Assembly (NCBI GenBank): GCA_000004985.1
Contig: GG738897.1
Source: Naegleria gruberi
Lineage: Eukaryota
Length of the DNA stretch: 64,000 nucleotides
Reading direction: 5' to 3' (one strand)
This document shows, piece by piece, positions 2,953 through 59,133 of the stretch. Made by a program: the position numbers and the translations under genes. Each line of letters opens with the position of its first letter. Position 1 is the first letter of the stretch. The notes under the pieces are model-generated. The model saw only the letters and a list, made by a program, of their open reading frames with translations, did no database searches and had not been told where the DNA came from.

Positions 2953-5900
2953 ATGTTTTTAAAACAATGGCTCAATAATAAGAGGAGCAACTCGATGAGT
3001 ACATCATCGTCATCGGGATCTATTAGTAATATGGTGAATACCAACAATAATCAGACAACAAATCCGAATAACAGTTACTCATCAGGGCTGGATAATTTGG
3101 GATTTTTAGATCAGCAAACATCACCCAATTCGCCTCCATCCTCCTCCTCATCACAATTTACCACATCCTCCCAATCACCAACTTCCAATAATCAAAACAA
3201 AGGAGTTTCAGGAGTTGTTGGTGATCAATCTCCTCTCCTTTTCAATCCTCCGAATAATAATAGCACAATTAATAATGAAAAATCAACAATTATGAACACG
3301 TCCACTTACTATACCTACACTGTCCAATCAGAAGAGGGTCTCCCTTCCATGGCCCAACATCACCATTTAGATGATGTTTCATCATCGGATGAGAATTTTC
3401 AATCACCACGAATGGTTCCTCTTCATGTCAATACTACACCTTCTTCATCAAACAATCATCATCAACACTCTGCATCGAGAATGATGCAACCGAATAGAGA
3501 CTCACCACTGATTCATCCCCACCATCATGCCATTCGTGTCTTTCCCTATGATTTACGAAAATTCAATAATAATCAACAACAACAACACATTTCTCATCAT
3601 CAATATTCACAATTATCAACAACACCAAATCAACAACAACATGGCAGTGAAGAATTAGCAGTATCAGTCTCTCCAATTCCTTCCAACCTGATGATGAATA
3701 TACCAGAGATTGGATTAAGTCCAATCACTTCAGGACCCAACAAACTTCTCAATTCTCCACATTCACCAATTGATGATGATCATAATAATGGTGGTGGAAT
3801 TTCACCAAAGAGTGATGAAGAAGTTTCTGTCTCTCTCTTCTCAGGGGATATTTCCAAGGCAGTTCATGATGAGTATTATCCATCACCACAAAAGCTTTCG
3901 GCCTCTCGGTTGTTACCTTCTGAACCACCATCACCAACTGCAACGACCACTAGGCTGGGTGATTCATTCAATAGTCAAATGCATTCACCATCTGTACGTT
4001 CGACAGCTTCAAATGTTTCCACTTCGAGAAGGAGAGCCAACAGTAACAGTTCAAACATTTCATCAACAATGTCCTTCCAGAATCCACAACAAAATGCTCC
4101 ATTTATTGTCTATTCTTTGAAGAATCAATCATTGGGATTTATGAATACTGCCATTTCACATCATTGTTCGAATAGAAATGCCAATCATCACACCCATAAT
4201 TTGTGTGAGGAGTGTACAAATTGTAATATTGCAAGAAATCATACTAGTCCATTTTCTGAAGTGTCAGTCATTAATATGATTGATCCAAATTCATCTCTTG
4301 GTATTGGAGAAGTGAATAATATTAATAAGGTTATATTATTGTACGATAGAAATGTAAATTTAGATACAAGTTATGCTTGTTTGACTCCATACTTTTTCAA
4401 TTATTGGAATTATGCTAATTTTTGTAATAGAAATGGAGAGGAGGTTGGAATTCCGAGAATACCTCCACATCAATACTTTTCCCTGAATGAGGAATTTATG
4501 TTTTATAGATGCAGACCTTTGAAAGTTGCTCCTAATAATATGGTTAGCTCTCCAATGCTGACATGCTATGAGGATGGTAGAATTTCAGTGTGGGATGCTA
4601 CCAATTCTAAACGAGTGGCCAACCTGAACGGTCACAGATTGACAATTACTTGTGCAGTACCAATTTTTGCTCAGGGAACTCTCATTTCTCAATCATCAGA
4701 AGATTCCAATCTCTATTTCCAATATACACCATTTGCTCAATTCTTATTGACTGGATCTGGAGATAAGTCCATTAAATTGTGGGATATTTCAGCAATTTGG
4801 AGCACATCAGGTCAGGCACCTACATTCAATCTGAATCCAGTGAGAACCATGAACATTCACGAATCGAGTGTTAGATGTATTGAACTACTCAATGATGGAT
4901 CCCCAAGATTTTGCTCTGCCTCCAATGATGGTAAAATTTGTTTGTGGAATTGGTTCACTGGAGAGCTCCTCCAAGTGATCAATAGAAGAGAGGATGGATG
5001 CATTTCCAATATGTTTATCATGAATTCCATGTTTTACAATGATATGTCATTCATTGAAAGGACGAACAATACCATCGTTTCAACATGCTCCAACAAGCCA
5101 GATTTATTCATCTATGATTTTGAAAAGATTGAAGATGTTATTGAGGAATCACCAACTATAACCGATGATTCGTCTAGCAATGACTTTTTCTACAAGTTAA
5201 TTGATGAAGAATTGGTACCTTCAGCAACAACAGAGCCAAGTAGTAGTGCATCCGTAGTAACACAACCACCTATTACATCCAACAAACCAAAAAATATCAT
5301 TTCCAGTCTAAAGATTCTCAATATTTTCTCAATGCCTTCCACTTCATCAAATGCTGATAACATTTCACAAAAATCAGATAATTCCTCTCATTCATCCATG
5401 ACTCAATCAATGAATCAATCGATGAACCAATCGCCAAACCAATCTAATCCAACCCTTCCTGCTAAACAGTCAGAGTTTGATTACATTATTAGCACTGTAA
5501 ATAATTTTGGAGAATTAACCTTTTGGAAAACAGCTCAGATCGATTCTGAAGCTAAATGGAACAAGTTGTGCTCTTGCAAGAAGATTCGTGAAATTTTGGA
5601 ATCCAAATACTCATCAAACGAACTCACCTATCAAGCATGTATTCAGTTGGTGGTGAATAATCACTTCTTGTTGGTTTCTCTCGCAAACCACTTGTTCATT
5701 TTCGATATTGCTGACATTCTCATGCACACAGAAGGTAATCAGGAATGTAAATTCTTATTGGAACAGGCAGAGGCTCACTCATCCACCATCACTACCATGT
5801 GTACTCTTCATTATGGTCATATTATTGCCACTGGTGCAGAGGATGGCACGATTCGATTATGGGACACTGGCAAACTGTTGATATCTAATAATCCATACGT

Positions 5901-6695: not shown

Positions 6696-6769
6696 ACCCT
6701 CCACCAGGAGTTGAACCTGGATCTTGCGAATGAGCCAGTCGCATATTCTAACCATTGAACCACAGAGGG
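6696..6769 (-). tRNA. tRNA-like gene (cloverleaf with 9-nt anticodon loop CTGGCTCAT; isotype unresolved)
   Basis: Minus-strand sequence CCCTCTG-TG-GTTC-AATGGTTA-GAAT-A-TGCGA-CTGGCTCAT-TCGCA-AGAT-CCAGG-TTCAACT-CCTGG-TGGAGGG-T. Acceptor, D, anticodon-stem and T arms all pair (with G-U wobbles), and the TTCAACT T-loop is present. The anticodon loop is 9 nt rather than 7. Paralog of the element at 13505..13578. Confidence 0.45.
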
Positions 6770-7136: not shown

Positions 7137-10100
7137 TTATTTGAAGTAAGGCATTTGGAGAATCTGCCTTGCACTTGGACGAGTTTCCTGATTCCTGTCC
7201 AACATTTTAATCACAATTTCCATTAATTCATTCGAATATTGTTGTTCAGCTTCCATTTGCTTTGTGAGAATTGACACAGCATTTGCTGATTGATTTCCCA
7301 TCAACAAGTTTCCAATAGAAATTGTTTCATCCTTTGTCATGATCTGATAAATTGAAACTCCCAATGAGAAAATATCGGTATTGAAAGAATAACAACTTCC
7401 CAATGCAATTTCAGGACTATTTCAATATCATGGTCAATTAAGTTGTGAAATTTAACATTTGCTTACCTCATAAAAAGTGGAGTTCCAGCATAGGAATGAC
7501 CTTTCATTTCTTGATGCTTTTTAGCTAAGCCAAAATCAGCCAAAACAACTTCAATATCATTTCCAGAAAGATTTCGAATAAAAATATTTGAAGGTTTGAT
7601 GTCTCTGTGAATGATTGATAATTCTGAATGGACATAGTCAAGAGCACTCAGTACTTGTTTCATTATCTTTCGAATAATATCTTCAGAACATGTTTCTTTC
7701 TTTGTAAATCTTGTCAAATCGCCATTTTCAAAATAATCCATATCCATACAAAGTAAATTATCTTTTGTAATGAAATAATCATTGATTATCAAAATATTTG
7801 GATGTCTAATATTACTAAATTGTGATGCCTCTTTCATAATCGTATTCAAATCTGTAAATGATTCAAATTTCACAAACTTGACAGCTTTGATTTTGTTTCC
7901 ACATTTGGTATCTGTCACTTTGAATACACTTCCAAATGCACCTTGTCCAATTCTGACCATATTAATATATCTTGAAAGGACATCTTCATTATCTGACACA
8001 TTGGATCCCATAGACGATGAAATAATTACAGAACTGGATGGGAAGTCTGACATTTCAACAATTGTGGCATTTGCTATTTCATTTCTCTTCACTGCCTTCT
8101 TCTTCTTCATAGATAGTAGAATGATAACCACCACAACAATTATCACTATTATTAAGCCAATTCCAACAATTGGAATCACAATTGCAACCACCAAAACAGT
8201 TGTTGATTGATCGTTGGCTAAATTATCGAGTGAAGATCTTTCACAAAATTGACCATCGAAACCAGTAATACAGTTACAAATATCCAATCCAACACAACTT
8301 CCCTTTCCATTACAACTTTTTGAATCTGAAGAACTAGTTCCATTACAAGTGATTGGTTGACATTTGTCACCATAGAAACCACTCAAGCAATCGCATGTAT
8401 TATTGAAAGAATTGAATTGTGCTCCTCCTTCACAAACAGGATATAGCTTTCTAATTAGTGAAGTTACACCATTGGTTGACACTGTTTCAAGAAAAAGAGT
8501 TTCGTCCGATTTCTCATTTACATCAATAGTATAACCAAAACCAATAAAACTTGTTTCCACTCCCTTCAGGTCTCCATTGAAATAGGTACTCTGCTCTCTT
8601 GGTTTTCCTGCAATGGTCACTAACAATCCAGTTTTTTTCACATACTTTCTAATAATATTATTACCAGAATCCAATATAATTATATCACCATTCTCTTTCA
8701 CATAAAATGACTTAATTTGAGACAATTTAGACGAAACAGCAGGTAGATTATCACCACTATATCCATCAGTCCCAGTTCCAACAATACTCTTCAAATAGAA
8801 CGAACCATTCTGAAGTCGTTCCAAAACTCGAATGGTGTTTGCTGTGCAAAAGTAATGCAGGTCATCACTAATGGAATGAGAGGAACCAATGACACCAATT
8901 CGTTTGTCATTTTCTACAATGATTCCATCTTCAGATTCGAAAGGTGAATTGAGTGGATTCCAAAAGAATACACGAATCATACCTGAACTCTTTTCAATCT
9001 TTCCAAAAAAATCTGGATAACAAATGTAAATATCGCCATTCTTGGGATTTACAGAAAGACCTTTAGTACTTTGCTTTCCCAATGGAGAATTCAAAGCTGG
9101 AATGTCAGGAATCACTGTTCCACATTCCTTTCCTGCCACTTTCTGATATTTCAATGTTTTTGGATCAATTTGAATAATTCTGCAATAATCTGCAACATAA
9201 ATCATATTATCATAGAGAGAGAATACCATTTTAACATCAACTCTTGGAAAAAGTGCAAACATAAAGGAATCTAAAAGTACTAAAGAAAAGGAAAGGAAAG
9301 GTTTGACAGCTGGCAATAGAGAGGTAATTTCACCAGTTTTCTCATCATACTTCTTCAATACATTCTTATCTATTATATAGATTAGATTTTGATTTGGATC
9401 TCTGCAAAAGGAATTCATGTCCATACCAAGTAAGTTTGAGCTAGGATTGCTGCCAACTATAGTTTTGGCAATTCCATCAACTATTGTGTAAATGTAGGAT
9501 GATACTGTCGCAATGTAAATGACTCCATTATGTGCATAAATTGAATTAATCGACCTTTTAAGGTTTCGAATAAAAAATTTTCAAAGAAACTTACATTGCT
9601 GATTGAGTGGCATTAACATTCTCACCACTATATCCATCAAAATCAACATAAGTTCCAGAATATGTACCTCCATCAATTCCACCAACCTTTCTTAAACTAA
9701 GATCATCCAAATTTGCTTCATAAATTCTGTAACCATTCGCAACATAAATCTTTCCATATATGGAATCATAGGCAACACGTGAAATTGAAACTGGAAATTC
9801 AATCCAGTCCGAAGATTGATTTTTCCATTCCACTTTTATAAGTATTCCAGATGAAATATAATATAAAGTATTGTTTAGGATGGAAAACTCATTTACACTG
9901 TACTCAATCTTACTTGAATCTTGTAAAGTTTCGTTTTGATATTTGTAAATGCCATCTGAACTCACAAATCCAATGTACATTGTGCCATTATCAAAGGAAT
10001 TTCCAAAACCAGTAATAGAGCTAATTGGATTACTGTAATTAATTTGGAAATATCTCATCCTTAATGTATCCAAATTAAGAACGTGTAAATCGTGGTATCC

Positions 10101-10650
10101 AGAAATAACCAAATCTCCATTTGGAAAGCAAAATAAACTTAAAATTGATTTGAAAGTTCTCGTTGGTGAAGTTTCTGTTTTCAATTTTGAACTCACTCCA
10201 AAGACAGTCTTGATTAGTCCATCTATTTTCGAAACCTTTCTAATAATCAAATGTTGTTCCACAAAATAAAGTTCATCATTATATATGAATGGTTTGTACA
10301 ATACATTGACTTGTGAAATCTCAAATCTTGGCAAGTCCTCTCCATAGGGATGATTAATGAATCCACCACTGAATGTTGACACAATCTTATTGGAAACATC
10401 AATCTTTCGAATACAATTATTGGATTTGTCCACAAGATAGACCATTGTATTTTTCACAATCAAAGAACCAGGTTCATAAAATCGAACATTCGAATAAGAA
10501 TTAACTAAATCATCTCCTTCATATCCAAACGAATCTTTTTCACCAATTATTGTTTTGGTTGAACTATCAATTAAAGAATTCATTTGTAGAAAATGTGAAT
10601 TGGACGACGAGGTCCAAATTTCATTATTGGACGAAACAAATATTCCATTT
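7137..10650 (-). CDS. receptor protein kinase, C-terminal exons (NHL/beta-propeller repeats, EGF-like Cys-rich region, TM, Ser/Thr/Tyr kinase); exons 10650..9595, 9440..7467, 7416..7137
   Basis: Kinase motifs HRDIKPSN, DFGLAK and GTPLFM|SPE, the last spanning a GTAAGC...atag intron (7466..7417). The kinase subdomain IX-XI exon ends with TAA at 7137. TM segment VLVVAIVIPIVGIGLIIVIIVVVVIILL follows Cys-rich EGF-like repeats. A second intron 9594..9441 (GTAAGT...ctag) joins the NHL-type repeats. Probably continuous with 12451..13268 through a 1.8-kb intron. Confidence 0.7.
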
Positions 10651-10689
10651 CTAATAATTATGGGATAGTCAATGTGGTAGACTTAAACA

Positions 10690-12440
10690 GAAAGTTCATT
10701 TTCTGAATCAGCAAAGGACCTTCTTATCCAGCAAAGGCCCCTCTCATCCAGCAAGTCACCAACCAATAAAACACCGAATAATGCTTTTTCAGCAAATAAC
10801 TCCTTCTTAATTTCATAAATTACTGATTTAGCAAAGCTTTCTTAATTATCCAAAGATTTGTTCCATTGCAGCAAATTCAATAAAGAAGAATATAAAGTGC
10901 TGATTTATTCTAAACCTGATTATTACGGATTAACAACTTTTATATATTTTGATGTATACATATTATAGTTGCTGTTACTATTAACTTAAGCATTGTGGCT
11001 TCAAGTTGGCAAACTGTAACAACAATCTAAGGACGTGAAAAATATTCAAAAGTGTATTCTTCATAACAAAACATAATCTAAATTAGTATCAACATCTTTA
11101 TTTGAGTTGTTTTATTTGCCATGTGATCCGACTATAAAAGTGACTGTATATGAAGAATCCACCTTAATTTGTAATTTTTTGTTCTGCAACAGCAAATCAA
11201 CGGAAAATATTAATGAAAAGACATCATGTACTAATTTACTATGTTATTTGATGAAATCAAGTGGAGAATGCATAAAACAGATTTTGATACAAGAAAACAC
11301 AATGATGATAATAAAAATATAATTTTATTTAATTATTGAAATAATTCAAGGTGGAAAATCAGCAAGATTTCCGACCTTGAAATTTACCTTGTTGGAAAAT
11401 TCACCATTAGTGAATTTTATTGATGGTTCGATGATGATGACCATTAAGATATTTACCATAATGATCGGAAATGAACTTGTTGATGATATTGATGATAAAA
11501 GATATGATGAAGAGAAAATTCCACAACTCTATGAATACTAAGTGGAAAAATTCCAACTCTCTTGATGGTGATATTAGACATCCCTACTAATGATACTATG
11601 TTGTTGAAATTCTATCATCATGATGAAAATATATGGTGAATGATGAATACACCACCAACAAGGTAAAAACTCAAAATATCCAAAAACTATTATTCGGAGT
11701 GTTGTTGATGATGTATTTGAATAGTACTATTCGAAGAAAGTTTGGAAGATGATGAAGTACATGTTGAGTTATTGCATATGTATAATTTCAAAATATACAT
11801 GAAGCAAACTTGATGAAATGAGAAGATGAATTCCTGCTATTGATACTGGTGATACTATAGAGTATTGCCAACAATCCCTAATTGAAGAAATTCCTAATGA
11901 ACAAGTAAATCTGCTGATGAGGATGATATTATGTGAAATTTGAAATTTCACCCAATAACAAGTACTAACAGAGACTCCACTTGCTTAAATTACTATTAAT
12001 ACAATAATAAATATACTGTGATGATGAACTCCGGCTTAATGATGATGTTTGGAAGTGTGAAATTTCCGATGATAGAAAACCACTATAATTCATTCCGAGA
12101 AGAAGCACCACCATAAAATATTACTATTATTACTATTGGTGAGATGTAGCCCAGCCACTATAATTGAAGTATTCCAAAATGATGATGAGTTGATTGAAAT
12201 AAATACCAGTGATGATGTAGAGGTATTTTTTTTACTTTCTTCAATTGCTAAATGGGAACAATTTCGTGGCTTATTCAGTAAAATTTTGCCAATTTACTGT
12301 TTATTTGCTGATTAAGTATGCGCGGATTCAGTAAAAATGATAAGCACATGGCTTGCTGAAACAGACCATCCTTTGCTGTTTTTTTTGAAAAATTTGCTGA
12401 AAAAGTACTACGCATAGTCAATTAGTTTGAGTTTCTGAAA
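10690..12440. mobile_element. candidate non-autonomous DNA transposon or inverted-repeat-bounded insertion inside an intron of the receptor kinase gene
   Basis: The left flank (10690-10870, + strand) carries about six copies of YTCAGCAAA (atcagcaaaggacc, tccagcaaaggcccc, tccagcaagtcacc, ctttttcagcaaataac, tttagcaaagc, tgcagcaaattc). The right flank (12240-12440) carries the reverse complement TTTGCTG five times (tttgctgaaaaag, tttgctgtttt, cttgctgaaacag, tttgctgattaag, ttgctaaatgg). Shared inverted words include ctttttcagcaaat, cagcaaagga and cagcaaataa. There is no ORF inside, and the core is a GATGATG-rich block. Removing the element would leave an intron of about 50 nt, typical for this locus. 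Confidence 0.4.
11340..12240 (+). repeat. strand-asymmetric GATGATG-rich, C-poor low-complexity block (degenerate (GAT)n-like)
   Basis: More than 20 occurrences of gatgatg/tgatgat on the plus strand within about 900 bp, with almost no C on that strand. No long ORF in any frame. Confidence 0.5.
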
Positions 12441-12450
12441 AAACACTTAC

Positions 12451-13268
12451 AACTTGGTTTCAAGTTCTGAAATTGCTATCCTTCGATATTTACCATTCTT
12501 ATCAATGGATTTGACTCTTTCGTCATCTGTGAAATAAACAGTGTCATCTTTCCCATTCGAAACTACATGAATATTCTTTGGAGATCGAAGAATTATTGAA
12601 TTGGCCTCAACATTATCGTACGATCCATCTAGATATCCATTTCCACCAGCGATTGTTGTCAAAATCTTGCTGCCAATGTCATATTTCTTTATCACGTTAT
12701 TTCCAGAATCTTTTGACATGTTTCAAAGAAATTTAGAAATATTTAACTTACCTGCAATGTAGAGTATGTTATTATTGGAAACATACACTCCCAATGGTTT
12801 GTTGAATGCAAAAGGTAGAGAAGAAACCAAATTCGTCTCAGCAGAAACTAGACGAATCTTATCATTATTCGTGTCAGCAATCCACAAATCACCATTAATC
12901 GCCACACTCAACGAAGAAGGTGAATTAAACAAGGTTTGTTTCACATCATATCCATCCTGATTAAAACCAAGTCCTAACCCTCCAAAAACAATCATACTTT
13001 CGTTTGGAAAAATCTTGAAAATTAATCCTCTCACACAATCAGACACGAAAATTTCATCATTATTTCCAGAGCAGATGCCACATGGAGCTTTTAGAAAGGC
13101 ATGTTTGGCAGTGAATGTTCTGTCAACATCTTGACCATTGCCTTTGTATCCTGTTAGTGTTTGTAGTTGGTAAGTTTCGGCTGCTTTAGTTTGAAAGAAT
13201 TTGTCTGAACTGCTTTGAAAGAGAAGAAACAGTAAACAGAGCAGTATCATCAATGTGTTTAGTTGCAT
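12451..13268 (-). CDS. receptor kinase gene, N-terminal exons (signal peptide plus NHL-type repeats); exons 13268..12752 and 12709..12451
   Basis: ATG at 13268 gives signal peptide MQLNTLMILLCLLFLLFQSSS (the track's 13361 start is TTG). NHL-like repeats follow (IFVSDCVRGLIFK, LWIADTNNDKIRLV, ILYIAG). A 42-nt in-frame intron 12751..12710 (GTAAGT...tcaaaag) removes the TGA that separates the two track ORFs. Exon 2 ends ...ETK + TT|GTAAGT at 12451/12450, and the frame is restored at acceptor attag|AAATGG (exon starts 10650), giving ...ELETK-L-NGIFVSSNNEIW. Confidence 0.5.
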
Positions 13269-13504
13269 TTTTTTGAAAAGTTTCTCCTTGTTGACAATCC
13301 TGACACACATCAAACTCCTCTGATTGAGAGCTAGTTGATGACTTTTAGCATAATCTTGCAATAATAGAAATTCCCCGATTCCAACTAGAATAGTTATAAT
13401 GGAATCTTCAGGAGTTGGAGTTGTGGTTCCAATTTGTGGGTATAAAAATAACTTGGTTTACTACTCAACTGCGTGACAAAAGTTTTTTTTTCAAATTAAT
13501 ACTT

Positions 13505-13578
13505 CCCTTTGTAGTTCAATGGTTAGAACGTGCGACTGATCCACTCGCAAGATTCAGGTTCAACTCCTGGCAGAGGGT
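13505..13578 (+). tRNA. tRNA-like gene (9-nt anticodon loop CTGATCCAC; paralog of 6696..6769)
   Basis: CCCTTTG-TA-GTTC-AATGGTTA-GAAC-G-TGCGA-CTGATCCAC-TCGCA-AGAT-TCAGG-TTCAACT-CCTGG-CAGAGGG-T. All four stems pair. Differences from the paralog sit in the anticodon loop and as compensatory changes in the acceptor stem, which fits a functional gene family rather than a decaying pseudogene. Confidence 0.45.
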
Positions 13579-21836: not shown

Positions 21837-23015
21837 ATGTCCTCCATCACACAACGGGAAGCACCACCTTACACTAGAATTCAATATGTTTCGCTTTCAA
21901 CTCTTGGGGTCATCACGGAAAAGATGAAGACTAAGATATTAACAGTGGCTACTAAGGAAAATTCCAAGCACAATATTACTGGAGTTTTGATTTGTGTGAG
22001 GGATATGTTCTTTCAGATTATTGAAGGAAAGACTGCTGATATTGAACAATTATTTGCAAATATTGTCAATGATTCGAGACATAATAATGTTGCATGTGTC
22101 GACAAGTCGTATTTTGAAAGTGAGGATGATAGAATGTTTCCTTCGTGGGATATGAAATCAATTGAGGTTGATTGTTTGTTTCCTACCAAGAAGGATGTAT
22201 TGATTTGTGGGGAAAATTGTAATCCACTCGATCCAACTCATAAGAGAGTTATTGAGACTGCATTCTCTGCTTTTACAACAATGATGGGAAGTATGTTCAG
22301 AGCTCAACAAGTGTTCAAGAATTATGCCCAACCAAGTGTAACCAAATTTGTTAGGGATGGATTGAATCCTCTCTGTATTCAATCTGTTGTTACGGAAAAG
22401 ATTGTAGTTTTTATTGACCTTGTAAATTATACCACCTTGACAGAAATCATTTCTCAATCGAGAAGCGTTGCAGAAATTGTAAGAATTCTCAACTTGTTCT
22501 TTGCCTGCGTTATGGAAATTGTCGAAGAGCACGGTGGAGACATTACCAAGTTGATTGGTGACTGTGTAATGTGTCATTTTGATGGGAAAGATTCACAAAA
22601 GGCCATTGATTGTTCGTTGAAAATATTGGAACGATTAGACCATCTCAGATATGAAACAACAGATCCATTCGAAAAGCTCATCTACTGTACAATAGGAATC
22701 TCGAAGGGTGAGGTCATTTTGGGAAATGTTGGCACAGTTGGAAGAAAGCTTGACTATACAGTCATTGGTGATTCAGTAAACACATCAGCAAGATTACAAT
22801 CCTTTGCCTCCACTACTCAATACTATCTCATTTTCGATGAGAATGTAAAGAATGATTTGATTAATGAAGATTATGTAATATCGTGTGGTTCGATTGAATT
22901 GAAAGGAAAGAGAAATACAGTCAATGCCTACACAATAGAGAATGTATATAATAGAAAACCTCAGAAAGAAGATTTGAATGGTCTTTTCAATGTGTGTTCT
23001 TTATCAATATTGTAA
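21837..23015 (+). CDS. BLUF-domain / class III adenylyl-guanylyl cyclase fusion (photoactivated adenylyl cyclase-like)
   Basis: BLUF motifs YTRIQYVS...NITGVL...FFQIIEGKTADIEQLFANIVNDSRH...FPSWDM. Cyclase homology domain FIDLVNYTTL...KLIGDCVMCHF...CTIGISKGEVILGNVG...YTVIGDSVNTSARLQS. Confidence 0.8.
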   Translation: MSSITQREAPPYTRIQYVSLSTLGVITEKMKTKILTVATKENSKHNITGVLICVRDMFFQIIEGKTADIEQLFANIVNDSRHNNVACVDKSYFESEDDRMFPSWDMKSIEVDCLFPTKKDVLICGENCNPLDPTHKRVIETAFSAFTTMMGSMFRAQQVFKNYAQPSVTKFVRDGLNPLCIQSVVTEKIVVFIDLVNYTTLTEIISQSRSVAEIVRILNLFFACVMEIVEEHGGDITKLIGDCVMCHFDGKDSQKAIDCSLKILERLDHLRYETTDPFEKLIYCTIGISKGEVILGNVGTVGRKLDYTVIGDSVNTSARLQSFASTTQYYLIFDENVKNDLINEDYVISCGSIELKGKRNTVNAYTIENVYNRKPQKEDLNGLFNVCSLSIL

Positions 23016-30907: not shown

Positions 30908-30979
30908 CTCCCATGCCGGGAATTGAACCCGGACCTCCTGGGTGAAAGCCAGGTATCCTAGCCATTGGACTACACGGGA
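30908..30979 (-). tRNA. tRNA-Glu (anticodon UUC)
   Basis: TCCCGTG-TA-GTCC-AATGGCTA-GGAT-A-CCTGG-CTTTCAC-CCAGG-AGGT-CCGGG-TTCAATT-CCCGG-CATGGGA-G. Canonical cloverleaf with U1-A72, typical of eukaryotic tRNA-Glu. Confidence 0.85.
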
Positions 30980-51875: not shown

Positions 51876-52033
51876 GGCACGGGAGGATTAATTTTAAACT
51901 TTCACGATTTTTCTTTCTATTTTCCAAATAACACTTTTTAATTTCTTTTTAATGATGAACTCTCTATTTTCATACACATTCAAATTTTCAATCTCCAGAA
52001 ATAACATAATCTCATTACAAAAAAAATGAAAAG

Positions 52034-53389
52034 ATGAGAAGGGGAAGAAAAATAATTCACAGCCATTCATCATCTGACGACGAGGACTATGAAGAAAACG
52101 AACCACAACAAAAACACTATTCAGAATCATCATCAGCTTCCGAATATTCATCCTCCGATGATGATGAATCAAACAATTCAAAAAACAAGAGAAAATCAAG
52201 AGTTTCATCATCCCGATCAAAACCTTCCCTATCACTAACTACATCAGCATCATCATCATCAACAAGAAAACAACAACAACAAACAAAGCAATCTAATTCT
52301 TCCTCTTCTACTTCATCATCATCATCAAGAATAATACGTAGAATTTCAAATCATCATGTAAAAAAACATCAAGCTGTTGATTGGGAGGTTTTAAAACAAA
52401 TTCTTGTCAAACGAAGACAAATCTATGATTTAGAATTGAAAAAGGCACAATTGGAGAGGGAAGCTTCTCGGAAGGCCATGTCTCTGGAAGGATCTGTGAA
52501 TAATCAGGATGAAGTTTCACCCTATTTGAAATATCCATCTTCAGTATTGTTGATGCTTTTGCAACATCAGGAATCGGAAGAACAACATTGTGCTGAGGAA
52601 GAGGAAAAGAAAAAGAAGGAAAAACGTAAGAAATCATCATCGAGTAAATCATCAAATAGTGTTGATAAAAGGTCAGCAGAATTTTCATCGTCATCCACAT
52701 TGAATGATGGTGATTCAGAATTGGATTCTACTGCACTTCCATCGGAACCAATCATGTTAACAGAATCAACAATTCCAAAACATTGTGTTCCAATAAGGAC
52801 CGATGTGAGAAATATGAATTGGAAAGCATTGGCAAGAGTGGCTCAATTTGATGTCATCTTAATGGATCCACCTTGGCAATTGGCAACTTCAAATCCATTG
52901 AGAGGTGTTGCAATTAGTTATAAACCACTCTCTGATAAGCACATTCAGAGTATGGACATTTCATCACTGCAGGAAAAGAATGGTGGATTTCTGTTTGTGT
53001 GGGTGATCAATGCCAAGTATGTAAAAACTTTGGAAATGATTGAAAAGTGGGGATATAAATTTGTAGATGAGATTACCTGGGTCAAACAAACGAAACACAG
53101 ACGTCTAGCCAAAGGCCATGGCTATTACTTGCAACATGCTAAGGAAAATTGTATCATTGCCATTAAGAATACCACTCCAGAGAGGGAAAAGGAAATGATG
53201 GAAGCTGCTCGACAGAAAGTGACCAGTCTCTGTGATGTCATTCTCAGTGATAGAAGAGGTCAATCTCAAAAACCTGAAGATTTGTATCATTTTATTGAGC
53301 AAATGGTACCTGATGGAAAGTATTTGGAAATATTTGGAAGAAGAAACAATTTAAGAGATTATTGGGTAACTATTGGCAATGAGTTATAA
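52034..53389 (+). CDS. MT-A70 family N6-adenosine methyltransferase (METTL3/IME4-like catalytic subunit)
   Basis: DPPWQLATSNPLRGVAISYKPLSD...GGFLFVWVINAKYVKTLEMIEKWGYKFVDEITWVKQTKHRRL...GHGYYLQHAKENCIIAIKN aligns with the METTL3 catalytic core, including the DPPW motif. N-terminus is low-complexity S/K-rich. Confidence 0.8.
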   Translation: MRRGRKIIHSHSSSDDEDYEENEPQQKHYSESSSASEYSSSDDDESNNSKNKRKSRVSSSRSKPSLSLTTSASSSSTRKQQQQTKQSNSSSSTSSSSSRIIRRISNHHVKKHQAVDWEVLKQILVKRRQIYDLELKKAQLEREASRKAMSLEGSVNNQDEVSPYLKYPSSVLLMLLQHQESEEQHCAEEEEKKKKEKRKKSSSSKSSNSVDKRSAEFSSSSTLNDGDSELDSTALPSEPIMLTESTIPKHCVPIRTDVRNMNWKALARVAQFDVILMDPPWQLATSNPLRGVAISYKPLSDKHIQSMDISSLQEKNGGFLFVWVINAKYVKTLEMIEKWGYKFVDEITWVKQTKHRRLAKGHGYYLQHAKENCIIAIKNTTPEREKEMMEAARQKVTSLCDVILSDRRGQSQKPEDLYHFIEQMVPDGKYLEIFGRRNNLRDYWVTIGNEL

Positions 53390-56964: not shown

Positions 56965-59133
56965 ATGTCAAAAGTTGAATCTGTTGTTTGTATTACACTC
57001 ACAGATTTCCTAGAGAATGAATTGTATCATCAATTAAAAAACAAATTCTCATCACAAACGAAAGGTTTCGTATTGTGGGAATTAAACAAGGAAATTAGTT
57101 TGAAAGAAAAACAATTTCTTCCGATAGAATATTCTAAAGACAAGGAATACATTCAGAAATGTGCAAAAATTTGTGCTTCTCTCGATTATAGAAACAATCA
57201 ATTTTATAGCACATATCTTGTTAGCTCAATTTATCCGAAATTATTATTGGAAAGTTCAGACGAATTACAGAAATACAAATTGAGTGGTATTAAAAAATAT
57301 GCTGATCACCATTCGAATATTAAAAAAACAATGATTTACAATACGAATCCAGAAACTAGAGAGCTAGTTTTGCAAGCTGTCAAGAAAAATGGAAATGATT
57401 TGATGAAATATCAAAAATTTAATTCGGATAGAGAAATTGTTATTGCAGCAATTAGACAGAATGGAAATGGATTATTCTATGCTGGAGTGGAATTGAGAAA
57501 TGACAGAGAGGTAGTGAGAGAATCAATGAAGGTCAACCAGCATACTTTCTATTACATGTCTGATGAGTTGAAGAAGGATAGATCACTAGCTCTGGAAGCT
57601 GTCAAGGAAATTCCAGGATCTATCAGATATGCTCCTGGTGAAATCAAGAATGATAGATCGTTTATAGTGGAAGCTGCTTTATTGAATGGAAAAGTGTTGC
57701 AATTTCTAGATGGAGAATTTTTGAAGGACAGAGAAATTGTGGAGAATGCTGTATCTCAATACGGGTATGCTATTAAATATGCGCCAGAGGAATTTCAAAG
57801 AGATGAATCATTAATGCTAGGTGTTATTAGAAAGGCACTCAGTTTGGATTCAACAGTAGAAGTTTCTGACGATTTGATTTTGAAATATGTTAAAGAGCAT
57901 AATGGTGGATATTTGGCAATTAAATTGGAAAGATGTTGTAATGTAAAAGAAGTTATATTGGGAGCATTGGAGAATAATGGATCTAGATTGAATGAAAATA
58001 ACAAGAGAGAAAGAGAATTCATCTTGGACATGTTGAAAGAAAATTGGGAAATATTCGAAAAGGCAGACGAAAATATCAAGAATGAAAAGCAAGTCTATAC
58101 AAAAGCATTTGGTTTAAATTGTACATTTCTTGAAGATTCCTATAATTCCGAGCTATTCAATGAAATTTTAAATTACAGAAAGAAGATTCTTGACAGCTCT
58201 CCAGTTGGTAAGATCGACAAGGAAATTGCAAGCAAAATTGTGCACCAGAATTTTAATATTTTGAAAGAATGGAATATCACCAGATTAGATGATCAAATTC
58301 ATGAATACTTACACCATTTCAGCAGTGACAGAGATTTCGTGCTACAAGCAGTTTATCTAGATGAGAAATATCTTTCATTTGCTAGTGATTCATTGAAAGA
58401 TGATTTTGATTTCATGGTGACAATTGCACAACATACCCGTAACATGAGAGATGCATCTCCTCGTTTGAAATCAGATCCTCAATTTATCTTACGAGCATTG
58501 GATTATCTTTATGAATTGAAAGCTCCAAAGGAATTGAGAGCTGATAGAGATTTCATGATGAAAGCAGTTCAGAAAGGAACACATCTCTATCACGCCTCTG
58601 ATGATTTAAAGAACGATAAGGAGTTAGTACTCACAGCCATTAAAGGCAGCTACTCGAACATTTCACATGCTAGTAAGGGTCTTCAAAAGGACAGAGAATT
58701 TATTATTGAAGTTTTGAAAATTGATGGAAATTGTTTGAAATATTTGTCAAAGTCTTTCAAAAATGATAGAGAGCTAATTTTGACAGCTGCTCAATCTATC
58801 AATCCTTACATTGATTATGAGTTGTGTTATGAGCTATTTCCAACGGACAGAGAAGTAATGATGGAGTGTACCAAACAATATGGATACGAAATGATTCCTT
58901 ACAATAGCTATCTTAGTGATGAGTTTCGTTTTGATAAGGAATTCATGTTTCAAATTGCTGCTTCAAATAATTCAGCAACTTTGGATGTGTTTGATATATT
59001 TGGAAATGATAAGGATTTAATAATGAGATTGGCACTTGTTTATGGGCTTGTTCAAAAGTTTGATGAAGATATTTATCGAAAGAGAATAGAATTGGTCTTC
59101 AATGGAGTCAAATTACCAACAGATAAATACTAA
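56965..59133 (+). CDS. DUF4116-type repeat protein
   Basis: 722-aa ORF with about 12 tandem repeats of roughly 36 aa built on [KN]DRE[FILV]V..AV..NG..L.YA (NDREVVRESMKVN, KDRSLALEAVKEIPGSIRYAP, NDRSFIVEAALLNGKVLQFLD, KDREIVENAVSQYGYAIKYAP...). Confidence 0.6.
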   Translation: MSKVESVVCITLTDFLENELYHQLKNKFSSQTKGFVLWELNKEISLKEKQFLPIEYSKDKEYIQKCAKICASLDYRNNQFYSTYLVSSIYPKLLLESSDELQKYKLSGIKKYADHHSNIKKTMIYNTNPETRELVLQAVKKNGNDLMKYQKFNSDREIVIAAIRQNGNGLFYAGVELRNDREVVRESMKVNQHTFYYMSDELKKDRSLALEAVKEIPGSIRYAPGEIKNDRSFIVEAALLNGKVLQFLDGEFLKDREIVENAVSQYGYAIKYAPEEFQRDESLMLGVIRKALSLDSTVEVSDDLILKYVKEHNGGYLAIKLERCCNVKEVILGALENNGSRLNENNKREREFILDMLKENWEIFEKADENIKNEKQVYTKAFGLNCTFLEDSYNSELFNEILNYRKKILDSSPVGKIDKEIASKIVHQNFNILKEWNITRLDDQIHEYLHHFSSDRDFVLQAVYLDEKYLSFASDSLKDDFDFMVTIAQHTRNMRDASPRLKSDPQFILRALDYLYELKAPKELRADRDFMMKAVQKGTHLYHASDDLKNDKELVLTAIKGSYSNISHASKGLQKDREFIIEVLKIDGNCLKYLSKSFKNDRELILTAAQSINPYIDYELCYELFPTDREVMMECTKQYGYEMIPYNSYLSDEFRFDKEFMFQIAASNNSATLDVFDIFGNDKDLIMRLALVYGLVQKFDEDIYRKRIELVFNGVKLPTDKY

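Follow-up and report, generated by a model that had tools for sequence, protein, structure and literature searches.

The window analysed here is a 64,000-nucleotide stretch of Naegleria gruberi contig GG738897.1 (assembly GCA_000004985.1), and it is gene-dense: open frames of at least 80 codons cover 85% of it, with a GC content of 34% inside those frames and 30% outside. On its minus strand lies the gene for an NHL-EGF-transmembrane protein kinase, a receptor kinase of N. gruberi, whose second intron now measures 1800 nt and very probably owes that length to a transposon. One open reading frame (ORF) of this gene, 653 amino acids (aa) long at 7463–9421 (minus strand), is 100% identical to 'predicted protein [Naegleria gruberi]', a public model of 1118 aa that we refer to as P0121. 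The intron and its surroundings, read in the direction of the gene, contain the following features.

12753–13268, minus strand: exon 1, with the ATG at 13268, a signal-peptide-like MQLNTLMILLCLLFLLF and NHL blades (from translation)
12711–12752, minus strand: intron 1, 42 nt
12451–12710, minus strand: exon 2, NHL blades, outside the public protein model (from translation)
10651–12450, minus strand: intron 2 in its present state, 1800 nt, of which 51 nt are the ancestral intron and 1749 bp the insert with its target-site duplication (TSD)
12414–12422, plus strand: TSD copy 2, ATAGTCAAT, an exact 9-nt direct repeat
10674–12413, no strand assigned: the inserted element, 1740 bp, missing from the related contig L003 (blastn of L003 against the window, and alignment)
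12220–12413, minus strand: right terminal/subterminal arm, tip on the minus strand GCGTAGTACTT, with the motifs of the left arm inverted
11249–12215, plus strand: element interior, ORF-less, strand-biased, rich in TGATGA/GATGATG and triplet-repeat-like
10709–10768, plus strand: tandem subrepeats in the left arm, three 20-bp units, CAGCAAAGGACCTTCTTATC and variants (Tandem Repeats Finder, TRF)
10674–10900, plus strand: left terminal/subterminal arm, tip GTGGTAGACTT, from the colinear alignment with the reverse-complemented right arm
10665–10673, plus strand: TSD copy 1, ATAGTCAAT (ATTGACTAT on the gene strand), an exact 9-nt direct repeat
9595–10650, minus strand: exon 3, within which P0121 starts, at Met 10583

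The enlarged intron retains the marks of a spliceosomal intron at both of its ends. Its donor is gtaagtg at 12450 and its acceptor ttattag at 10651 (minus strand); exon 2 ends at 12451 with ...AAG TT immediately before gtaagtg, and the coding sequence restarts at 10650, immediately after ttattag, with A AAT GGA. Splicing from 12451 to 10650 preserves the frame (TT plus A, encoding Leu), and across the join the peptide, ...ISELETKLNGIFVSSNNEIW..., has the look of a normal, continuous NHL blade. A first, sequence-only reading of these letters had proposed an 1800-nt intron between 12451 and 10650, and the splice sites, the kept frame and the continuous blade bear it out. The remaining introns of the gene measure 42, 40 and 50 nt as against these 1800 nt, and nowhere else in the window is there so long a stretch lacking an open frame of 80 codons or more as in the intron 2 region; the runner-up is 570 bp.

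The strongest evidence on the origin of the extra sequence comes from relatives of N. gruberi. While a word-indexed protein search gave just bacterial NHL proteins of about 25% identity (P0091 is bacterial), an exhaustive HMMER search recovered short ORFs of Naegleria-like organisms over exons 1 and 2, among them P0170 at 95% identity and P0200 at 51%, and a search seeded with an alignment of the relatives returned six ORFs of 207–269 aa, with P0170, P0200 and P0316–P0319 named among the orthologues that end at the junction. Those of the relatives' ORFs that cover exon 2 end at the junction position, the 3' end of that exon. The contigs that carry the relatives' sequences all come from one European Nucleotide Archive (ENA) metagenome, ERZ929261 (PRJEB11402). 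The closest of them, L003, is 97.8–97.9% identical to the window in nucleotide sequence over 4.8 kb. In blastn it aligns with 13592–12414 and then runs straight on to 10673–10547, with everything between missing, and its positions 4831–4839 match both copies of the 9-mer in the window, 12422–12414 and 10673–10665. The L003 intron, gtaagtgttttttagaactcaaactaATTGACTATcccataattattag, is 49 nt long and contains the 9-mer once, with exon 3 directly after it. L003 is thus an empty site in the strict sense: 1740 bp and one 9-bp copy are present in the window and absent from L003. The sequence-only reading had named empty sites as a check on its proposal, and this is one.

Four more distant relatives, with protein identities of about 47–64% to the window gene, have the intron at the same codon position and in the same phase; across all five relatives the orthologous introns measure 49 (L003), 40 (L004), 43 (L007), 58 (L008) and 46 nt (L009). 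Because the four more distant relatives have introns of 40–58 nt at the same position and phase, the short intron is the ancestral state. The 1.74-kb segment is therefore a derived insertion that post-dates the split from the L003 lineage and is younger than the roughly 2% divergence that separates the two. The same metagenome holds orthologues from at least five distinct Naegleria-like lineages (the L002, L003, L004, L007, L008 and L009 loci), ranging from about 42 to 99% in protein identity. A second indel polymorphism between the window and L003 lies at about 13596, beside the transfer RNA (tRNA) gene at 13505–13578, where L003 (3545–3653) has approximately 109 bp more than the window. Intron 1 (42 nt, 12711–12752) is itself missing in the roughly 50%-identical L004/P0200, where the ORF reads through (IYIADTGNNLIKKYE); the genus is thus not uniform in which introns this gene contains.

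The empty site also fixes the boundaries of the insert to the base. Flanking it is a perfect 9-bp repeat, ATAGTCAAT, and the statement in the sequence-only reading that no clean target-site duplication could be found is thus overturned. Excision of the insert together with one copy of the repeat gives a 51-nt intron, our reconstruction of the state before insertion; the intron now has about 35 times its original length. The earlier estimate that removing 10690–12440 would leave about 50 nt was right as to the length of the old intron and wrong in its coordinates, the exact insert being 10674–12413. Considered alone, the duplicated word is no more than suggestive: when two 70-nt end zones separated by 1.8 kb are placed at random in the window, a word of this length is shared in 3.8% of cases.

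The ends of the insert are related to one another in inverted orientation. When the left 230 nt are compared with the right 230 nt in reverse complement, the two are colinear from their first bases onward, with similarity extending over approximately 190–225 nt. The local alignment score is 58, as against 26.2±4.4 in 500 shuffles and 26.8±5.4 in 500 equally spaced genomic pairs (none of the 1000 reaches 58), and the same flanks aligned in direct orientation, as a control, score 27. The tips read GT(G)GTAG-ACTT on the left and GCGTAGTACTT on the right, giving a joint pattern G[T/C]G..TAG..ACTT; element position 36 is CAGCAAAGGA and position 56 is CAGCAA in both arms, and further inward the two have in common CAGCAAATAA, GCAAA, TTGTTCC and AGCAATT. 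A 26-nt block, CAGCAAAGGANNNTCTNNTNCAGCAA, matches exactly once in each arm, is repeated in tandem with one mismatch in the left arm, and is absent from the rest of the window, where a profile of the arms, run with nhmmer, likewise matches nothing beyond the two arms themselves. In the left arm the subrepeats have, by TRF, a period of 20 in 2.3 copies with 88% matches, a result with which a repeat-family search is concordant.

The two arms have a short motif in common. Copies of CAGCAA[AG] or TAGCAAA, the core common to all of them, start at 10709, 10729, 10749, 10790, 10831 and 10869 in the left arm and, inverted, at 12399, 12378, 12358 and 12310 in the right. The six left-flank copies described in the sequence-only reading are thus present, whereas the full 9-mer YTCAGCAAA that it gave for them fits just one or two; its further observation, that the right flank carries the motif in inverted orientation together with three shared words (ctttttcagcaaat, matching at 14 of 14 positions, cagcaaagga and cagcaaataa), holds as it was made. 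CAGCAAA itself occurs five times on the plus strand at 10709–11196 and three times on the minus strand at 12304–12399, and its 25 occurrences in the whole window compare with 11.7 expected, a count that none of 100 shuffles attains.

The two arms are also predicted to pair. Folding of the flanks against each other, another check that had been suggested, gives for the two arms alone a gain of −28 kcal/mol, compared with −9.6±3.9 in shuffles. When the whole intron is folded to its minimum free energy, pairing of the arms begins at their tips, with 55 pairs between intron positions 37–146 and 1697–1776. This second fold is not discriminating, because controls with a shuffled 3' arm also give 10–50 long-range pairs.

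Between the arms the insert encodes nothing that we could detect. Its longest ORF is 71 aa; Pfam gives no match at E≤10 in any of the six frames, and thus no remnant of a transposase or of a hAT dimerisation domain; the interior has no coding 3-periodicity; and tblastx of the insert, in comparison with the window, found nothing. On these grounds (ORFs, Pfam, periodicity and tblastx) the element is non-autonomous. Rfam families give sub-threshold matches only.

Taken together, the duplication, the inverted ends and the unoccupied allele make it almost certain that 10674–12413 is a transposon insertion as such, and very probable that it is, specifically, a 1740-bp non-autonomous class II (cut-and-paste) DNA transposon that entered a pre-existing intron of about 51 nt. 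The inverted-repeat-bounded, non-autonomous DNA transposon of the sequence-only reading is supported by the empty site, the inverted arms (58 against 26±5) and the lack of coding content. In such an event, a transposase made elsewhere in the genome by an autonomous relative would act in trans, binding the CAGCAA[AG] sites in both arms and bringing the element ends into synapsis; integration would proceed through a 9-bp staggered cut in the intron, and repair of the gaps would leave the 9-bp duplication.

To which superfamily the element belongs is a less certain matter, and three had been offered for it: hAT, MULE and CACTA. We favour, by a modest margin of confidence, a Mutator-like element (MULE), a group that we take with its Foldback/Rehavkus-type relatives, on the strength of the 9-bp TSD, the inverted arms with their tandem subrepeats and the G-starting tips. 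MULE duplications span 8–11 bp, with 9 bp typical, a range that includes the one found here, and MULE terminal inverted repeats (TIRs) commonly extend over hundreds of base pairs (PMC6446971). The insert resembles MULEs in having three 20-bp tandem subrepeats in one arm, no transposase of its own and a genic, non-coding position. Its inverted terminal regions, about 200 bp long, would suit MULE TIRs (commonly 100 bp or more) in length, but they are just 54–62% identical. In the same species a full-length element of the MuDR superfamily (MuDRF) with 9-bp TSDs has been reported (PMC3164196), a likeness that concerns the duplication. The insert differs from MULEs in its interior, which is a strand-biased, TGATGA-rich block of low complexity in which no captured fragment of a gene can be recognised.

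A hAT-like or other superfamily is unlikely. The hAT superfamily is characterised by an 8-bp TSD and the terminal consensus 5'-YARNG, and the combination of imperfect short tips with subterminal arrays of a short motif is the classic Ac/Ds layout. The insert shares it: its terminal repeats are short and imperfect, its CAGCAA[AG] clusters are subterminal and inverted, and its inside is ORF-less. One could thus read the insert as a non-autonomous element of hAT type (or of P or Merlin type) in which the CAGCAAA clusters are subterminal transposase-binding repeats, the true TSD is 8 bp and the ninth base is a coincidence. The low arm identity, just 54–62%, would suit such an element, and the duplication, if read in the register ATAGTCAA, agrees with nTnnnnAn, the loose consensus of hAT targets. 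On the other side, the duplication is exact over nine of nine positions and not eight, the tips miss YARNG in every register (GTGGT/GCGTA, TGTGG and TGCGT), the six frames hold no remnant of a hAT dimerisation domain or transposase, and it is a MuDR-superfamily element with 9-bp TSDs that is documented in N. gruberi. We consider this specific hAT version improbable. CACTA (En/Spm) elements resemble the insert in their multiple subterminal repeats, both direct and inverted, and CMC-EnSpm elements have been annotated in N. lovaniensis, the sister species (PMC6125883). CACTA elements have a 3-bp (2–3 bp) TSD and CACTA ends, and they are excluded here by a 9-bp TSD and tips of the form G[T/C]G..., with no CACTA at either end. 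A non-autonomous DNA transposon lying with its TSD wholly inside a spliceosomal intron also calls to mind the introner elements. Here, however, the intron pre-existed (40–58 nt in five relatives) and was merely enlarged, and the splice sites are host sequence; an introner element is ruled out, as all five relatives share the intron's position and phase.

Several observations weigh against the transposon and MULE assignments that we prefer, and they are best considered together. Arm identity is only about 54–62%, yet the insertion happened within the last 2% or so of divergence, and it follows that the arms were already dissimilar at that time. Classical maize Mu elements, by comparison, have near-identical long TIRs, and in this respect the insert departs from MULEs of the maize Mu type. 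No MURA-type DDE transposase or matching autonomous partner links the insert to a superfamily. Repetitiveness is a defining property of transposon families, and in the 64-kb window a second copy was not found by blastn at word size 7, by tblastx or by the nhmmer profile of the arms, and the related contigs contain no copy of the element. Among Joint Genome Institute (JGI) metagenome contigs the 26-nt block has two single-site matches, without flanking similarity and as chance predicts; a scan of viral contigs with the same block returned nothing, and none of ten ORFs of the element is present in the protein collection by exact-sequence look-up. Lastly, an 8-bp TSD with one base matching by chance would, judging from the repeat, also be compatible with a single insertion, and could conceivably be what was left here.

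What the insertion has done to the gene is a separate question. The insertion left both splice sites alone, and for that reason the enlarged intron is probably still removed by splicing; we think the gene is still one unit encoding a putative protein of about 1399 aa. An alternative is that the insertion split the gene, such that 12447–13361 and 7137–10650 are not joined in messenger RNA and the interval between them is intergenic or untranslated, with the left arm possibly serving as a promoter for the downstream part. Several facts can be cited for a split. The public annotation counts against our reading, as P0121 begins downstream of the enlarged intron, at Met 10583, and the exons are not joined in it; P0121 is 100% identical to the downstream exons, its first residues are MNSLIDSS, and it leaves out approximately 281 N-terminal residues (the signal peptide and NHL blades) encoded by 13268–12753 and 12710–12451. 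No N. gruberi protein spanning these upstream exons is found among the protein search results. The ancestral intron had a branch-point-like CTAAT, which the insertion has moved to a distance of 1.75 kb from the 3' splice site, and Naegleria introns are short (median in N. lovaniensis, 80 bp; PMC6125883).

Nonetheless, we regard a split gene as unlikely. The two splice sites are intact, as is the reading frame, and the duplication has placed TGACTAT beside the acceptor, 14 nt upstream of it; the CTAAT that is now 1.75 kb away is the more canonical of the two. The only signal-peptide-like sequence of this transmembrane receptor is in the upstream exons. All of the exons are open, none containing a frameshift or a stop codon, and of the 11 codons (among 293 across the junction) that differ between the window and L003, nine differ synonymously and two non-synonymously. 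The annotation gap, in turn, is what ab initio gene prediction geared to short introns would be expected to give: P0121 is probably a truncated model, produced by a caller unable to bridge a transposon-inflated intron.

The interior of the transposon deserves separate comment, in that it might be taken for a functional unit in its own right. TGATGA occurs there 19 times on the plus strand and once on the minus strand (window background, 1.6 per kb), which, together with a longest ORF of 71 aa, agrees with the earlier description of an ORF-less, GATGATG-rich interior, and its autocorrelation at offset 3 is 0.379 as against 0.294±0.015. The autocorrelation suggests an interior that may derive from decayed GAT/ATG triplet repeats or from an old acidic coding tract, and an origin from coding or triplet-repeat sequence is possible. 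TRF and offset autocorrelation reveal only micro-repeats of period 3 or 9 and a weak signal at about 130 nt, and a long tandem repeat is accordingly rejected. CTGA is nearly absent from the interior, and by eye, without counting, we also saw a recurrence of GAAAWTTCC-like words. Just one other place in the window, the 1-kb bin 52000–53000, has a strong local peak of the motif, with 15 occurrences of TCATCA on the plus strand; it falls within an ORF at 52034–53389 (plus strand) and may reflect serine-rich coding (TCA TCA).

A functional plus-strand unit in this interior, either a cluster of box C/D small nucleolar RNAs (snoRNAs) or a protein-coding gene with small introns, is very improbable. 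The 19 C-box-like TGATGA words on one strand only would fit it, as would GC and AT skews like those of a plus-strand gene and two weak Rfam matches, one SNORD104-like at 11879–11945 (22.5 bits, E 0.018) and the other to sR10 (16 bits). These matches are far under the gathering scores of 40 and 45, there is a single CTGA (the D box) between 10917 and 12308, the plus frames are full of stops, with no 3-periodicity and no Pfam match, and the whole segment is dispensable, being missing from the 98%-identical L003 lineage. With D boxes lacking and the Rfam matches sub-threshold, the snoRNA cluster is rejected; so, as a present-day gene, is a decayed plus-strand gene, given stops in every frame and no 3-periodicity. 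It is hardly credible, finally, that a 1.8-kb intron was the ancestral state and was shortened by deletion in the relatives. Recombination between the 9-bp direct repeats could in principle remove the segment precisely, but introns of 40–58 nt are found in every one of five independent lineages (protein identity from 98% to about 50%), for which such precise deletions would have had to recur, and the inverted arms abut the direct repeat exactly.

Elsewhere in the window, two tRNA genes flank the receptor-kinase gene, at 6696–6769 (minus strand) and 13505–13578 (plus strand). They are about 85% identical to each other, and ARAGORN labels these 74-nt genes Ser(gct) and Asp(atc), which is odd given their similarity. 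Three further tRNA genes are found at 30908, 51814 and 59952. An ORF at 21837–23012 (plus strand) pairs BLUF with an adenylate/guanylate cyclase, a domain pair of the photoactivated-cyclase type, and a protein encoded at 56965–59130 has nine DUF4116 repeats.

Regardless of the superfamily, the locus provides an occupied and an empty site, resolved to the base pair, for a DNA transposon of N. gruberi, a species whose repeats are mostly still unclassified (PMC12344493). It also corrects the public gene model P0121, from which 281 N-terminal residues are missing, and it points to the ERZ929261 contigs as a useful comparative resource on intron and transposon polymorphism in the genus. The value of the finding lies in annotation and in a seed sequence for a Naegleria transposable-element library, and our understanding of transposons or of introns is left unchanged by it. 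For the biology of the lineage, an insertion younger than about 2% divergence means that cut-and-paste transposition has recently been active there. We hold out only slight expectation for the larger reading, in which the insert would represent an undescribed, recently active family of N. gruberi DNA transposons whose dissimilar yet complementary arms matter for the host. Similarly doubtful is the idea that pairing of the arms in the pre-mRNA might loop out approximately 1.6 kb and bring the splice sites to within about 60 nt of each other, such that a spliceosome accustomed to introns of 40–60 nt would still work; a hairpin that approximates the splice sites in this manner is, on the predicted folds, possible but unproven. 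If it were true, transposons with inverted arms would be the insertions that short-intron genomes tolerate inside their introns.

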